Of a stretch of 5,471 nt of DNA, positions 790-5,028 are shown piece by piece (position 1 is the stretch's first letter; each line of letters starts with the position of its first letter). Origin of the DNA: a virus. Its lineage: Duplodnaviria; Heunggongvirae; Uroviricota; Caudoviricetes. The stretch lies in the IMG/VR virus record IMGVR_UViG_2713896904_000005; one strand, 5' to 3'. The position numbers and the translations under genes were made by a program. The notes beneath the pieces are model-generated. The model was given only the letters and a program-made list of their open reading frames with translations. It was not told where the DNA came from and made no database searches.

Positions 790-1179
790 TCAGGCGGCTG
801 CACCCGCCGGTTTCTCGTACTTCCTGATAGTGATCTCGACCTTCCCTTCCGGGATAACCGGTCCCCACTCCACCAGCATTCTTTTCACCTGACTGTCGTC
901 TTCCCACACACCCGCGTGGGTCAGGGCGTCAAACAGCGCCTTGTTATAGTTGTCCAGATCGCGGATCCGGTTATCCGGAGGAAACAACACGATCTCCACT
1001 GAAGCAGGTGCCGACGTTGGTTTTGGCAGACGACGTAACTGCTCAACTATTGCTGCACACGCCGCGCTCTGGAATTTGTGCCCCGCTGCGCTTATCAGGC
1101 TCTTACCAGCAAACGCCCCTTTGTTAGGGTGTCGCCAGTACGTGTTCACGCTGGGCGGAAAAGGCAGTATTAGCTTCAT
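790..1179 (-). CDS. rusA: Holliday junction resolvase RusA (crossover junction endodeoxyribonuclease)
   Basis: 129-aa ORF MKLILPFPPSVNTYWRH...DNRIRDLDNYNKALFDALTHAGVWEDDSQV matches E. coli RusA as I recall it (LPWPPSNNRYYR...[29 protein letters not shown]), including the acidic catalytic residues. Start overlaps the upstream gene by 4 nt (ATGA). Confidence 0.9.
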   Translation of the reverse strand: MKLILPFPPSVNTYWRHPNKGAFAGKSLISAAGHKFQSAACAAIVEQLRRLPKPTSAPASVEIVLFPPDNRIRDLDNYNKALFDALTHAGVWEDDSQVKRMLVEWGPVIPEGKVEITIRKYEKPAGAAA

Positions 1180-1502
1180 ACTTTCAGGCCCCTCTCATGT
1201 AACCAGTGGGCTGCACGCAGCCTGGCGTTTTCCTCACCGGCAAGCAGTGAGCGGATAATCCCGACCGCCTCGCTGTCGTCGTCCTTCACCGCGGTATGAA
1301 GCGTTATCCCCCGGGCCACGCCACGCTTTATCGTGATGACGCCTTTTTTCTCCAGCGCACGAAGATGCTCCACCGCTGCATTCACCGAACGGTATCCCAG
1401 CATGGTTGCCACCTCCTGATTGGTTGGTGGGAAGCCACGTTCTTTCTGATAAGAAATCAGCATATCCAGCACCTGCTGCTGGCATTGAGTTAACGTCGTC
1501 AT
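1176..1502 (-). CDS. LexA N-terminal DNA-binding-domain-like protein lacking the S24 peptidase domain (108 aa)
   Basis: MTTLTQCQQQVLDMLISYQKERGFPPTNQEVATMLGYRSVNAAVEHLRALEKKGVITIKRGVARGITL aligns colinearly with the LexA N-terminus ([68 protein letters not shown]). The ORF stops about 40 residues after the domain; no Ala-Gly site or Ser/Lys dyad. ATG at 1502..1500 overlaps the upstream TAA (TAATG) and follows a GGGGG SD-like run. The ORF track's alternative start at 1535 is a GTG. Confidence 0.7.
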   Translation of the reverse strand: MTTLTQCQQQVLDMLISYQKERGFPPTNQEVATMLGYRSVNAAVEHLRALEKKGVITIKRGVARGITLHTAVKDDDSEAVGIIRSLLAGEENARLRAAHWLHERGLKV

Positions 1503-1990
1503 TAAGCCCCCACGTAATTCCCTGACAGATACCACTCTTCACCCGATGCAGCGCGCTTGCTGCTTTTCCGTAAGCACCGCTCACGACGCGCCAGAAAATT
1601 GTTTCGTTCTGGCTGGGAGTGGCTTTCACGGAATGCCGCCATCCACACCGTTGCAGCACGACGGTATAAGCCCCTGGACTCCAGTTCTTCAGCCTGGCGG
1701 GTCAGGCACAAAATCTCCCGCGGGTCGTTAGTGCCGACATAGAAATTGCGCACAGGTCTGGTTTCACGAACTGGTTGTGGTTCCGCCTCCTGCGCTCTCT
1801 CAGTCAGGCGCGGGAAATGTCTGCGTGTATCCCCTTCACAACGGTGAGCCACACGACCACTCTGACGTAACTTGCTTGCTGACTGCAGAACGCGCTGCCG
1901 TGAGTAACCTGCAAAAGCATCCGCAATGTCTCCGGAAGTACACCCCGGATGGGCTTCAATGTATTTCTGAACTTCATTCAAAAGACTCAT
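1502..1990 (-). CDS. Hypothetical small regulator with a PerC-like C-terminal motif (162 aa)
   Basis: ORF directly after the O-like gene. ATG at 1990..1988 is 2 nt after the O stop (TGA 1995..1993) and is preceded by GGGGGTGA. The C-terminal segment LESRGLYRRAATVWMAAFRESH...RRERCLRK resembles the PerC/Pch family motif (GLxRRAAxxW...CL) from memory. The N-terminal part (LLNEVQKYIEAHPGCTSGDIADAFAGYSRQRV) looks like a small helix-turn-helix. The track's 1996 start is a GTG two codons upstream. Confidence 0.6.
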   Translation of the reverse strand: MSLLNEVQKYIEAHPGCTSGDIADAFAGYSRQRVLQSASKLRQSGRVAHRCEGDTRRHFPRLTERAQEAEPQPVRETRPVRNFYVGTNDPREILCLTRQAEELESRGLYRRAATVWMAAFRESHSQPERNNFLARRERCLRKSSKRAASGEEWYLSGNYVGA

Positions 1991-1992
1991 GA

Positions 1993-2934
1993 TCACCCCC
2001 TGAATCCTGCCGGGATCTGGCTGTAGTCCACTTTGTCGTAACTGGCTTTGAAGTACGGGTCTTCGCGTTTTTCGGTGTACGTGCTGACGGACGGCGATAA
2101 GCGCAGGGAAAGCTCATCCCATTTTTCCCGCAGCTTCGACGGGCTGAGCACGTTACGGCACCAGAACGGATCGCGACTGACGCGGCTGTACATCTCGCAG
2201 ATTTGTTTGTGAGTACGACCATCCTGCACACACATCAGGCGAATTTCGTTTGCCCAGGCTGTCCAGTTCGGTTCTTTGGGACGAACCACCTCGCCGTCAC
2301 ATTCGGCGGCCTGCTCGTACAGGGCGATGATTTTTTTCCAGAGCCACTGTGCGCAGGTCAAATCATCCTGCGTTCCCCACTGGCGCTTTTTAGGGCTGAA
2401 TACAACCGCATCAGGATGGCGAGTTAAAAACTCCTGTTCAGCCGTCTGCGTGTCCGGTTGCGAAGCGTCCGGACGAGAAGTTTTTTTATCTGACGGATCA
2501 TGTTTTGATTTTACTGACGGATCCCCGCCAGATTCTGACGGGTGAAAACCCGCTTTTTTGCCAGATTTCGACGCATCAAATTTTGACGGGTCAGATTTTG
2601 ATGCGTCAGATTTTGACGGGTCAGAATCTGACAATTGAGAAAATGCCGCTGCCTGAAGCTTCGCAATGTTAAGCTGATAAACATTCGACGCATTGCGGTT
2701 ACCCTGGCGACGCGCCTTACGCGTTAACCAGCCTTCTGCTTCCAGCCGTGCGATAGCCGTTCTGACGGTACTCATCCCCGCGCCAATCTGACGGGCAATG
2801 GTTTCAATTGATGGCCAGCACACACCTTCGTCATTACTGAAATCAGCCAGGCGGGCCATAATTGCCACGCTGGATAATTTCATGCCTGACGCTGCGCAAC
2901 CATCCCATACATAGCCGGTTAATTTAGTGCTCAT
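1993..2934 (-). CDS. Replication initiator protein, lambda O-like (N-terminal helix-turn-helix, iteron-encoding linker)
   Basis: 313-aa ORF with N-terminal MKLSSVAIMARLADFSNDEGVCWPSIETIARQIGAGMSTVRTAIARLEAEGWLTRK, typical of phage replication-initiator HTH domains. AGAGG SD 6 nt before ATG 2934. Low-complexity linker (DPSKSDASKSDPSKFDASKS) is encoded by a tandem DNA repeat array, the lambda O arrangement. Follows cro/CII-like genes. Confidence 0.85.
   Translation of the reverse strand: MSTKLTGYVWDGCAASGMKLSSVAIMARLADFSNDEGVCWPSIETIARQIGAGMSTVRTAIARLEAEGWLTRKARRQGNRNASNVYQLNIAKLQAAAFSQLSDSDPSKSDASKSDPSKFDASKSGKKAGFHPSESGGDPSVKSKHDPSDKKTSRPDASQPDTQTAEQEFLTRHPDAVVFSPKKRQWGTQDDLTCAQWLWKKIIALYEQAAECDGEVVRPKEPNWTAWANEIRLMCVQDGRTHKQICEMYSRVSRDPFWCRNVLSPSKLREKWDELSLRLSPSVSTYTEKREDPYFKASYDKVDYSQIPAGFRG
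2486..2635. repeat. Putative phage origin of replication: array of 15-bp iterons (consensus TCAGATTTTGACGGG) plus flanking AT-rich tract, inside the O-like gene
   Basis: Five contiguous 15-bp units at 2561..2635 (ccagatttcgacgca / tcaaattttgacggg / tcagattttgatgcg / tcagattttgacggg / tcagaatctgacaat). Further copies of the TGACGG core at 2491, 2515 and 2536. A T-rich stretch at 2477..2490 lies on the side expected for an unwinding element. Confidence 0.7.
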
Positions 2935-3873: not shown

Positions 3874-4074
3874 CTAATCTTTCGGATAGATATCCGGTCT
3901 TAAGTCAGATTTCGTAATTGCACCTGATGTGTATTGCTCAAGTTTTTTAGCCAGCACAAAACTGGCTTTTTTATAGCCATTGAAAACCAGCCGTAAGTAG
4001 CCAGGTGTTGAGCCAACTTTTCCGGCCAACTCGCCCTGCTGTTCTTTGGTTAAAGAGTCCCAATACGCTTTCAT
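3874..4074 (-). CDS. Cro-like helix-turn-helix repressor (66 aa)
   Basis: MKAYWDSLTKEQQGELAGKVGSTPGYLRLVFNGYKKASFVLAKKLEQYTSGAITKSDLRPDIYPKD is a small Cro/YdaS-type HTH protein with the characteristic C-terminal ...LRPDI motif. Divergent from the CI-like gene. ATG 4074 has GGAGG (rc of 4085..4089) upstream; the track's 4098 start has no SD and falls in the operator region. Confidence 0.8.
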   Translation of the reverse strand: MKAYWDSLTKEQQGELAGKVGSTPGYLRLVFNGYKKASFVLAKKLEQYTSGAITKSDLRPDIYPKD

Positions 4075-4164
4075 ACAATATGTACCTCCGGTGTACATAT
4101 TACATGATTAAAATGAACCTTCAAGATACTTGTACCTTAACGGTACAAGGGTTTTAATTTCGTT
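4075..4164. promoter_or_regulatory. Divergent promoter/operator region (OR-like) between cro-like and CI-like genes
   Basis: Two 19-bp inverted-repeat sites: 4080..4098 ATGTACC-tccgg-TGTACAT (6/7 half-site symmetry) and 4130..4148 TTGTACC-ttaac-GGTACAA (perfect). Candidate cro promoter on the minus strand: -35 TTGAAG (rc of 4119..4124), 16-bp spacer, -10 TAATAT (rc of 4097..4102). Candidate cI promoter -10 TTTAAT at 4153..4158, just before ATG 4165. Confidence 0.6.
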
Positions 4165-4839
4165 ATGAAAACAATCCATGACATCCGGCGGTCTAACGCC
4201 AGAAAACTGAGAGATGGTGTTGGCGGGAATTCTTCCTTTGCCACTATGATTGATCGCGAGCCAACCCAGACCAGCAGGTTTATGGGAGATGGTGCTACTA
4301 AAAATATCGGTGACAGCATGGCACGACACATCGAAAAATGTTTCGACCTGCCTGTAGGATGGCTCGATCAAGAACACCAGACAACGAACATCACAAAAAA
4401 ACCTGATGTTTCAATCACTAATAAACAAATCACATTAGTCCCTGTCATATCATGGGTACAGGCCGGAGCATGGAAAGAAGTTGGATATTCTGAGGTTGAT
4501 TTGAGCACAGCAGAAACGTATCCCTGCCCTGTACCCTGTGGGGAAATGACTTATATCTTGCGGGTGATAGGTGATTCAATGATTGATGAGTACCGCCCGG
4601 GAGACATGATTTTTGTCGATCCTGAAGTACCTGCCTGCCACGGTGACGACGTTATTGCATTGATGCACGATACAGGTGAAACCACCTTCAAAAGGTTGAT
4701 AGAAGATGGGACACAGCGTTATCTCAAAGCGTTAAACCCAAACTGGCCTGAGCCTTACATTAAGATCAACGGTAATTGCTCTATAATTGGTACTGTGATT
4801 TTCTCAGGAAAACCAAGAAGATACAAAATCAAAGCCTAA
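4165..4839 (+). CDS. CI-like phage repressor with N-terminal HTH and C-terminal LexA-type S24 autopeptidase domain
   Basis: 224 aa. HTH region (FATMIDREPTQTSRF...MARHIEKCFDLPVGWLD). Probable cleavage site VQAG-AW (compare lambda CI VQAG-MF). Ser nucleophile in LRVIGDSM and Lys in TTFKRL, matching the LexA/CI Ser-Lys dyad context. Divergent from the cro-like gene. Confidence 0.9.
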   Translation: MKTIHDIRRSNARKLRDGVGGNSSFATMIDREPTQTSRFMGDGATKNIGDSMARHIEKCFDLPVGWLDQEHQTTNITKKPDVSITNKQITLVPVISWVQAGAWKEVGYSEVDLSTAETYPCPVPCGEMTYILRVIGDSMIDEYRPGDMIFVDPEVPACHGDDVIALMHDTGETTFKRLIEDGTQRYLKALNPNWPEPYIKINGNCSIIGTVIFSGKPRRYKIKA

Positions 4840-4851
4840 TCAATGTTTATG

Positions 4852-4874
4852 AACCTGCTTCGGCAGGTTTTTTT
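4852..4874 (+). terminator. Rho-independent terminator downstream of the CI-like gene
   Basis: Stem AACCTGC (4852..4858), UUCG tetraloop (4859..4862), stem GCAGGTT (4863..4869), then a T run through 4874, 13 nt after the CI stop. Confidence 0.75.
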
Positions 4875-4878
4875 ATAC

Positions 4879-4912
4879 TTGACAATGTACCCTTTAGATA
4901 CATAATGTACCC
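4879..4912 (+). promoter_or_regulatory. Strong sigma70-type promoter (pL-like) with embedded operator
   Basis: -35 TTGACA (4879..4884), 16-bp spacer, -10 CATAAT (4901..4906). The spacer and -10 contain the 19-bp site ATGTACC-cttta-GATACAT (4885..4903), same architecture as the two OR sites. A further ATGTACC half-site lies at 4905..4911. Confidence 0.65.
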
Positions 4913-4990
4913 AAGAGAAACAACAAACAGGCAGGACGCCCACGAAGTAGCCGCCTGGGGCATATGAAGTCCAGGATGATTCGTTAGCAA

Positions 4991-5028
4991 CAAAAAAGCG
5001 CCCTACAGGACGCTTAGCTCTTTAACAA
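4991..5028. promoter_or_regulatory. Leader hairpin plus boxA-like element (GCTCTTTAACAA)
   Basis: Inverted repeat AAGCGCCC-taca-GGACGCTT (4996..5015). On the minus-strand RNA it forms an 8-bp stem with one G-U pair followed by U6, so it is terminator-like for leftward transcription. On the plus-strand RNA the stem has a C-A mismatch. Immediately 3' on the plus strand, GCTCTTTAACAA (5017..5028) matches the rrn/nut boxA consensus as I recall it. Confidence 0.4.

Follow-up and report, generated by a model that had tools for sequence, protein, structure and literature searches.

Predicted operators of a lambda-like CI/Cro switch in the immunity region of SfV/SfIV/e14-type prophages

The immunity region and its earlier annotation

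The regulatory region studied here is of a type carried by the e14 prophage of Escherichia coli K-12, by Stx2c-converting phages and by phages that convert the serotype of Shigella. The GenBank record of phage SfV (U82619.2) holds a regulatory feature named 'putative operator region' at 26377-26445, and phage SfIV's CI and Cro are reported to be 100% identical to those of SfV. In e14, ymfJ, which heads the PL arm behind PL, and ymfM, which belongs to the PR arm, are switched on together at a late stage of the SOS response and show near-identical kinetics (PMC11002266), and both genes are described as being under a CI-like repressor and not under LexA (PMC11002266; bioRxiv 10.1101/2020.11.19.390815). 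The division inhibitor of e14 is likewise reported to be outside LexA control (bioRxiv 10.1101/2020.11.19.390815), and oxidative stress elicits a response of a 'YmfT iModulon' made up of e14 genes (PMC10602906). A definition of the operators is absent from PMC11002266, bioRxiv 10.1101/2020.11.19.390815 and PMC10602906 and, the primary SfV/e14 papers (Allison et al. 2002; Mehta et al. 2004) aside, we found no experimental operator data in the searchable literature. Precise operators help to predict superinfection immunity between SfV/e14-type phages, to explain why e14 genes, the division inhibitor ymfM among them, are induced late in the SOS response, and to annotate the 'YmfT regulon' of transcriptome studies.

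The DNA analysed here, which we call the window, is a stretch of 5,471 nucleotides from the IMG/VR virus record IMGVR_UViG_2713896904_000005, and it represents the immunity region of a lambdoid prophage of the SfV/SfIV/e14 type. Its cro-OR-cI-PL segment shares 99.0-99.2% identity with phages SfIV and PhiR29, 98.1% with SfV and about 95% with phage Ayreon, Stx2c-converting phages and cdtI, and it reaches 99.7% identity with chromosomal prophages of E. coli, in which the genes are named ymfK and ymfT. The near-identical cI, cro and operators, at 98-99.7% DNA identity, place it within the SfV/e14 immunity group. A match to the segment was found in 2159 of 5426 complete genomes, so that about 40% of the complete E. 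coli genomes carry this immunity type. The e14 prophage of K-12 has operator half-sites identical to those of the window, and its intergenic sequence differs by a single base, outside the sites.

The 90-bp spacer between the divergent genes cI (plus strand) and cro (minus strand) holds both of the palindromes that the initial annotation of this DNA had reported as OR operators. By alignment offset, the operator region of the SfV record corresponds exactly to positions 4080-4148 of the window. Since that record (2002) annotates the same 69 bp as an operator region, the observation of the two palindromes is not new. The record gives one undivided region, and the elements that we call OR2, OL1, OL2 and PL have no feature entries in it. 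To that annotation our analysis contributes a third OR site and the OL sites, a comparative footprint, and a map of the promoters; no new kind of system emerges from it.

The proteins encoded on either side of the spacer are those expected of a lambdoid switch. The cI product has a Peptidase_S24 domain (E = 1.5e-26); its C-terminal domain matches the structures of lambda CI, UmuD and LexA, and a profile of its first 90 residues matches the phage repressor DNA-binding domains 5d50 (E = 1.2e-5) and 7nkv. The self-cleavage site Ala100-Gly101 and the catalytic residues Ser138 (in GDSM) and Lys176 (in FKRL) are invariant in the alignment of orthologues, all of which also conserve a TQxSR helix. Cro gives weak Pfam matches to YdaS_toxin and HTH_3 and weak matches to the prophage Cro structures 8co2 and 8c7k, and its GYLRLVF helix is invariant in the orthologues from Hafnia and Edwardsiella. 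We took the ATG at 4074..4072 as the start of cro, which gives a protein of 66 residues as in the SfV annotation, in place of the upstream in-frame ATG at 4098 that starts the listed open reading frame. The genes to the left of cro encode a phage-186-type CII (CP76), a DUF4222 protein, a replication initiator, a PerC-like protein, a protein with a LexA DNA-binding domain and RusA. An Rfam search of the window at E ≤ 1 returned a spurious miRNA on iteron repeats as its sole match. In sum, divergent cI and cro, repeated palindromes on both predicted promoters, an operator cluster at PL and self-cleavage motifs in CI are all found in this locus.

Operators and promoters around cI

The features identified in the window are collected in Table 1. 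The pattern WTGTAC-N7-GTACAW occurs exactly twice in the window, against 0.00 occurrences expected from 200 dinucleotide shuffles. With up to two mismatches it occurs four times against 0.53 expected, and a count of four was reached in 0 of the 200 shuffles. The two exact matches are the 19-bp sites of the initial annotation, present as described with 7-bp half-sites and a 5-bp spacer; the right-hand one (OR3) is, as claimed, a perfect palindrome, with an exact 7+5+7 arrangement. The two further matches, OL1 and OL2, are on the opposite side of cI, in its second flanking intergenic region. In the complete genome of SfIV (39,758 bp), TGTACC-N5-GRTACA with at most one mismatch is found at four places only, all of them in OR or OL, the expected number being 0.23. 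A sixth motif match in the window, at 4530-4546 inside cI (TGTACCCTGTGGGGAAA, two mismatches), was discarded as a chance occurrence; it has a good left half only and lies in a conserved protein motif.

Table 1. Coordinates of genes, promoters, predicted operators and terminator in the window.
Feature	Position	Strand	Sequence or elements	Basis
LexA-DNA-binding-domain protein gene	1176-1535			domain match
cro (ymfT/croE), 66 aa	3874..4074	-		ORF; Cro in SfV and SfIV annotation, ymfT in E. coli
OR1, predicted operator	4080..4098		ATGTACC-TCCGG-TGTACAT	exact motif match and conserved half-sites
PR, predicted cro promoter	4097..4124	-	-35 TTGAAG (4124..4119), 16-bp spacer, -10 TAATAT (4102..4097)	
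OR2, candidate weaker operator	4113..4131		ATGAACC-TTCAA-GATACTT	repeat family and motif scan
OR3, predicted operator	4130..4148		TTGTACC-TTAAC-GGTACAA	exact motif match; left half-site is PRM -35 (TTGTAC)
PRM, predicted cI maintenance promoter	4130..4158	+	-35 TTGTAC (4130-4135), 17-bp spacer, -10 TTTAAT (4153-4158)	
cI repressor (ymfK/cohE), 224 aa	4165..4839	+		N-terminal HTH and S24 self-cleaving domain
Intrinsic terminator after cI	4851..4877	+	GAACCTGCTTCGGCAGGTT then T run	terminator scan
PL, early leftward-type promoter reading away from cI	4879..4906	+	TTGACA-16-CATAAT	promoter scan, 11/12 consensus
OL1, predicted operator	4885..4903		ATGTACC-CTTTA-GATACAT	motif match, 1 mismatch
OL2, predicted auxiliary or weak operator	4905..4923		ATGTACC-CAAGA-GAAACAA	motif match, 2 mismatches

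A middle site, OR2, was detected as a member of a repeat family with OL1 and OL2 and also by a scan with the core motif allowing two mismatches. The description of two OR operators thus holds for both sites and not for their total, since OR2 adds a third site to OR and OL1 and OL2 add two more. The consensus that had been suggested, wTGTACC-N5-GGTACAw, is essentially right and can be refined to ATGTACC-N5-GRTACAT. On the evidence of the sequence, the two palindromes are very probably OR1 and OR3 of a lambda-like CI/Cro switch that has five operators with this consensus.

The hexamers of PR and PRM were placed by hand and by their conserved position. Both promoters fall below the threshold of the promoter scan (9 of 12 consensus positions; PR has 8 of 12), and for this reason the scan does not list them. 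The start of PR is predicted near 4092-4089, so that OR1 would span from about -8 to +11 of this promoter. The positions of the PR hexamers are gap-free in all relatives, with mostly TTGNNG at -35 (TTTACG in locus L017) and TAATAT or CATAAT at -10. An alternative -10, TGTAAT (4104..4099), was rejected, as it leaves a spacer of 14 bp and is not conserved in the relatives of the CATAAT type. The Shine-Dalgarno sequence of cro, GGAGG at 4089..4085 on the minus strand, lies inside OR1, and OR1 overlaps the end of the PR -10, in agreement with the initial annotation, which had one of the two sites overlapping the cro leader and -10. The other site had been assigned to the -35 regions of both promoters; it does cover the -35 of PRM, but the -35 of PR is found inside OR2 instead. 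Nor do the two sites bracket both promoters, since the -10 of PRM falls outside the pair.

PRM was positioned by analogy with lambda PRM. Its -35 matches the consensus at 3 of 6 positions, and a TNTAAT-like hexamer is found 6-7 nt before the cI ATG in most relatives. Transcription is predicted to begin at the A of the cI start codon (4165), which would make the cI mRNA leaderless, and a consensus Shine-Dalgarno at normal spacing before cI is absent in every relative aligned. Counted from this predicted start, the centre of OR2 is at -43 and that of OR3 at -26. The exact transcription start sites of the switch promoters are estimates, read from the positions of the hexamers.

Conservation of the sites among relatives

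For comparison we scanned one genome per species with a degenerate peptide and obtained 24 loci with CI orthologues that are 61-100% identical. The genera include Escherichia, Pseudocitrobacter, Klebsiella, Atlantibacter, Leclercia, Phytobacter, Enterobacter, Pantoea, Trabulsiella, Kluyvera, Limnobaculum, Rahnella, Edwardsiella, Symbiopectobacterium, Serratia, Proteus and others. Two loci, from the phages Hafnia yong2 and Edwardsiella EPP-1, were added at 66-69% DNA identity. The resulting 25 distinct cro-cI spacers align without gaps from cro to OR3, and the OR1-OR2, OR2-OR3 and OL1-OL2 distances are fixed in the 25 loci.

The half-sites of OR1 and OR3 carry about 2.0 bits per column, against a baseline of 0.71 bits on average at third codon positions of cI, of which 3 of 70 are invariant. 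At OR1, the half-site columns stand at about 2.0 bits in the 25 distinct orthologous loci, and in its spacer the first three bases (TCC) are fixed and the last two variable; we attribute the fixed TCC to the cro Shine-Dalgarno. At OR3, the half-sites range from 1.5 to 2.0 bits and the spacer from 0.2 to 0.4 bits, with about 20 different spacer pentamers among the 25 loci. Even between phages that are 98% identical, the differences within the sites are in spacers or degenerate positions: the OR3 spacer is TTAAC in the window and CTATC in SfV, and the OR half-sites of SfV differ from those of the window only at position 14 of OR1, a change from G to A at the R of the consensus. Invariant half-sites with free spacers are the pattern expected of a dimeric protein that contacts half-sites about 11 bp apart, and this supports the prediction that OR1 and OR3 behave as repressor operators should. 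The conservation of OR1 could come in part from the Shine-Dalgarno and the -10 and not from repressor binding.

We also scanned IMG/VR with a composite OR2-OR3 pattern, which matched at least 120 contigs, 119 of them with full flanks and comprising 67 distinct variants. Among the matches listed, the motif lies beside cI in all 119 full-flank contigs: OR1 is upstream and a cI start (ATGAAAAC or ATGAAGAC) directly downstream in 119 of 119. Again among the matches listed, the TQxSR helix is encoded within the first 60 residues in 116 of the 119 contigs, PL and OL1 follow cI in 107 of the 111 that could be evaluated, and the half-site columns of OR1, which was not part of the search pattern, carry 1.6-2.0 bits in the 67 variants. 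Distant CI homologues from Variovorax, Cupriavidus and Giesbergeria are 33-37% identical in the N-terminal domain, differ in the helix and have unrelated upstream repeats; they show a change of specificity with the protein, but are too remote to serve in a test for covariation.

On the far side of cI, the terminator is annotated in SfV and Ayreon and present in relatives. The TTGACA and CATAAT of PL, a promoter annotated in phage Ayreon, are nearly invariant in the 25 loci. OL1 fills the PL spacer and runs into the -10; across the 25 loci its half-sites are invariant and its spacer free, and the differences between the window, K-12 e14 and SfV are confined to the spacer (CTTTA, TTTGA or CATGA). 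OL2 overlaps the -10 and start site of PL, 20 bp centre-to-centre from OL1. Its left half is conserved and its right half weakly so, the site is absent in Proteus, and we regard it as the least certain of the five operators.

A separate observation was made in the leader that would be transcribed from PL. A conserved element at about 4930-4982, some 17 nt downstream of the PL start predicted near 4913, consists of GGCAGGACGCCCACGAAGTAGCCG, a 5-7-bp stem with the conserved loop GGCRTAYGAA, and then ATGATTCG. The stem covaries among the relatives and also in phages whose immunity regions are unrelated (CCTGG/CCAGG, CCGGT/ACCGG, CCCGG/CCGGG, CCCCA/TGGGG, TCCGG/CCGGA in mEp237 and CTACC/GGTAG in ZF40), with compensatory changes in 5 of 7 pairs and none broken. 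The element is present in 51 phage records; in 3 of 3 records checked it is found on the same strand, downstream of the immunity region's cI side, and there is one copy per genome in the window and in the SfIV genome. It has no Rfam family match at E ≤ 1, the hairpin has no similarity to the HK022 immunity/put region or to the annotated putL-like RNA of HK639, and the sequence string is absent from the searchable literature. Since SfV and SfIV are reported to have no N gene, a leader RNA that acts in antitermination is a reasonable idea for this element. We find the hairpin more intriguing than the operators themselves.

A proposed switch, its alternatives and related systems

The sites and promoters suggest the following mechanism. 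A dimer of CI (YmfK/CohE) would recognise ATGTACC-N5-GRTACAT through its N-terminal helix-turn-helix, with half-sites about 11 bp, or one helical turn, apart. As OR1 would extend over the cro ribosome-binding site and the start of PR into the end of its -10, CI at OR1 and OR2 would block PR and keep cro, the cII-like gene and the replication genes off, and CI at OL1 and OL2, inside PL, would keep the other early operon off. The centre of OR2, at -43 from the start of the putative leaderless cI transcript, is at the position from which lambda CI activates PRM, and activation of PRM from OR2 is proposed here by that analogy. Since OR3 coincides with the -35 of PRM, CI at high concentration, or Cro, bound there would turn cI off. 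Upon DNA damage, RecA-stimulated self-cleavage of CI at Ala100-Gly101, by Ser138 and Lys176, would release both promoters. We infer from the sequences both which protein is at each site and the order of affinity.

Three other explanations of the repeats have to be weighed, of which the one with most in its favour concerns OR2. It holds that only two OR operators are functional and that positions 4113-4131 are conserved merely as the -35 and spacer of PR, unbound by repressor. OR2 indeed has three mismatches to the strict pattern and was missed at up to two mismatches against WTGTAC-N7-GTACAW; it is centred on the PR -35, an element whose own conservation is expected in any case and could account for part of that of the site; and its last two bases are shared with OR3, 17 bp away centre-to-centre, a spacing and overlap unusual for cooperating dimers. 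Yet the left half, ATGAACC, sits in the PR spacer, where the promoter has no need of a particular sequence, and it is nevertheless found in 24 of the 25 distinct sequences, at 1.6-2.0 bits across genera. It is one mismatch from the half-site consensus, and most relatives have a perfect GGTAC on the right. The conserved form of the site reads ATGAACC-N5-GRTACTT, in the same 7+5+7 register as the other sites. In Proteus the defective half is swapped, with a restored ATGTACC on the left and a degraded GAAAC on the right, which suggests selection for a site of intermediate strength. We consider OR2 a probable repressor operator, and the explanation by promoter conservation unlikely.

The other two explanations question the nature of the sites as a whole. 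If the palindromes were nucleic-acid hairpins, OR3 for instance could be an intrinsic terminator or attenuator, and a terminator scan does flag 4129-4149, with an 8-bp stem, a 5-nt loop and then GGTTTTAATT. In OR3, however, the loop is free to vary but the columns of the stem are invariant, so that compensatory pairs are lacking, and G-C pairs make up only 4 of the 8 in the stem. The half-site sequence is repeated at five sites, some of which form poor hairpins (OR2, OL2, and OR1 with its T.C mismatch). Moreover, OR3 is upstream of both predicted start sites and would be missing from the mRNAs of cI and cro alike. By its position, its G-C count and its lack of covariation, OR3 does not qualify as an intrinsic terminator or RNA hairpin, and we give this explanation almost no credence. 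Binding by a host or another phage regulator in place of CI or Cro, be it LexA, the cII-like gene product or the product of 1176-1535 with its LexA DNA-binding domain, is suggested by the SOS induction of both arms of e14 and by the very presence of this second LexA-like domain in the window. The LexA SOS box is CTGT-N8-ACAG. In the motif described here TGT and ACA are separated by 11 nt, against 8 nt in that box, and the division inhibitor of e14 is the gene reported above not to be controlled by LexA. The sites, furthermore, track the CI family one-to-one, both in the 119 viral contigs among the matches listed and across genera, while the neighbouring modules differ, and the distant CI homologues with another recognition helix have other repeats upstream. 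This explanation is therefore very improbable, if slightly less so than hairpins, and binding of CI and Cro to the five sites is the reading that we retain.

Within the proposed CI/Cro switch, the spacing of OR2 and OR3 allows one more suggestion. OR3, the perfect palindrome and best of the sites, is itself the -35 of PRM, and the site that overlaps it, OR2, is a weakened one. The centres of OL1 and OL2 (20 bp apart) and of OR1 and OR2 (33 bp apart) are roughly in phase, and those of OR2 and OR3 are out of phase. With this fixed 17-bp spacing, the dimers would be on roughly opposite faces of the helix, and occupancy of the two sites could exclude or couple; given the 2-bp overlap, simultaneous occupancy may be impossible. 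It is conceivable, though we put it forward only tentatively, that activating occupancy of OR2 and repressing occupancy of OR3 are mutually exclusive or structurally coupled, unlike the cooperative OR1-OR2 logic of lambda. If true, a leaderless cI would be under competitive autoregulation, in a switch whose conservation extends from E. coli to Proteus.

Of the known systems, the SfV/SfIV/e14 immunity region is the same element as that of the window, with point differences only. For lambda, the comparison draws in part on PMC6649833. As in lambda, cI and cro are divergent, three OR sites lie over PR and PRM with a second cluster on PL beyond cI, CI combines a helix-turn-helix with a RecA-dependent S24 self-cleaving domain, the middle OR site is near -42/-43 of PRM, and the cI mRNA from PRM is leaderless, here by prediction. 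Unlike in lambda, the sites are 19 bp long (7+5+7) instead of 17 bp and have another half-site sequence; OR2 and OR3 overlap and are 17 bp apart from centre to centre, where lambda has 23-24 bp; OR1 is at -10/+1 and over the cro Shine-Dalgarno, where in lambda it is between -35 and -10; OR1 and OR2 are 33 bp apart; only two OL sites are recognisable; and the cII-type gene is of the phage 186 CP76 family. A further comparison is with the CI/Cro(YdaS) switch of the cryptic prophage CP-933P. Cro of the window falls in the same YdaS-like HTH family, with a weak match (E = 0.02), and CI has a distant profile similarity (E = 0.0035) to CP-933P CI (7nkv/8c3k N-terminal domain; Cro 8co2/8c7k); nothing points to a shared operator specificity. 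Finally, the predicted operators resemble the LexA box in being palindromes for a dimeric repressor of the S24 family, with repression lifted by RecA-stimulated cleavage. They differ from it in sequence and half-site spacing and in being confined to the phage immunity region, and the e14 genes are induced later than the targets of LexA (PMC11002266).

A weakened third candidate operator and the start of cI

The initial annotation described two repressor sites in the spacer between cro and cI, at 4080-4098 and 4130-4148 (the latter OR3). This count was incomplete, as a third, weakened candidate operator, OR2, had been overlooked. OR2 covers the -35 element of PR, the predicted cro promoter, and has 2 bp in common with OR3. 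Its single-base defect is kept across genera, and in Proteus the defective half has switched to the other side.

At the cI end of the spacer, the cI mRNA appears to be leaderless. The -10 element of PRM, the predicted cI maintenance promoter (TTTAAT), ends 6 nt upstream of the cI ATG, and a consensus Shine-Dalgarno at normal spacing before cI was found in none of the 25 related cro-cI loci. Judged by the conserved MKT start, the annotated cI start codons of Hafnia phage yong2 and Edwardsiella phage EPP-1 are wrong.

Features located in the window
Feature	Position	Strand	Detail
LexA-domain protein gene	1176-1535	-	119 aa
Replication-initiator gene	1993-2934	-	
15-bp tandem repeats	2562-2625		CAGATTTTGACGGGT, 4.3 copies
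OR2, weakened candidate operator	4113-4131		ATGAACC-TTCAA-GATACTT
Apparently leaderless cI start	4153-4167		
cI terminator, then PL	4851-4923		PL: TTGACA-16-CATAAT
OL1, candidate operator on PL	4885-4903		
OL2, candidate operator on PL	4905-4923		
PL-leader element	4930-4982	+	GGCAGGACGCCCACGAAGTAGCCG, hairpin, ATGATTCG
Terminator-like hairpin	4996-5015	-	AAGCGTCCTGTAGGGCGCTT + T run

The PL leader

Downstream of cI, its terminator is followed by PL, a near-consensus early promoter reading away from cI, on which two further candidate operators are found. About 17 nt past the predicted PL start begins a conserved, RNA-like element, in which a hairpin with a covarying stem and a conserved loop (GGCRTAYGAA) is flanked by two further parts. 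The stem occurs in six different sequences, with compensatory changes in five of its seven pairs and none broken. The element is present in 51 phage records, at one copy per genome, and its carriers include phages of unrelated immunity (SfII, ST64B, mEp237, SPN3UB, ZF40 and YeP1); its place in the three phages checked is directly downstream of the immunity region's repressor side. An Rfam search gave no match for it, a literature search found nothing, and no similarity was detected to the put RNA regions of HK022 and HK639. In phages such as SfV and SfIV, which have been reported to be without N, it may be a nut/put-like antitermination RNA or a leader RNA. In the PL leader of yong2, a tRNA-like sequence (GTGGTGTAGCTCAGTTGGTAGAGCGG...GGTTCAAGTCCAGCCACCACA, 2353-2428 of that locus) stands at the position of this hairpin element in the window.

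Facing PL, the minus strand carries a strong terminator-like hairpin; transcription coming leftward from genes further downstream could be halted there, short of PL and cI.

A LexA-domain protein and repeats in the initiator gene

In the early-right operon, adjoining a PerC-like gene and RusA, a small gene encodes a protein with the LexA DNA-binding domain only (E = 3.7e-19), without the S24 cleavage domain. This protein might modulate the SOS regulon of the host, acting as a LexA mimic that cannot be cleaved.

The tandem repeats within the replication-initiator gene encode the SDPSKSDASKS repeats of its protein; they also produced the sole Rfam match, mir-5880, which is spurious. These repeats are probably origin iterons, which in lambda likewise lie inside the initiator gene, O.
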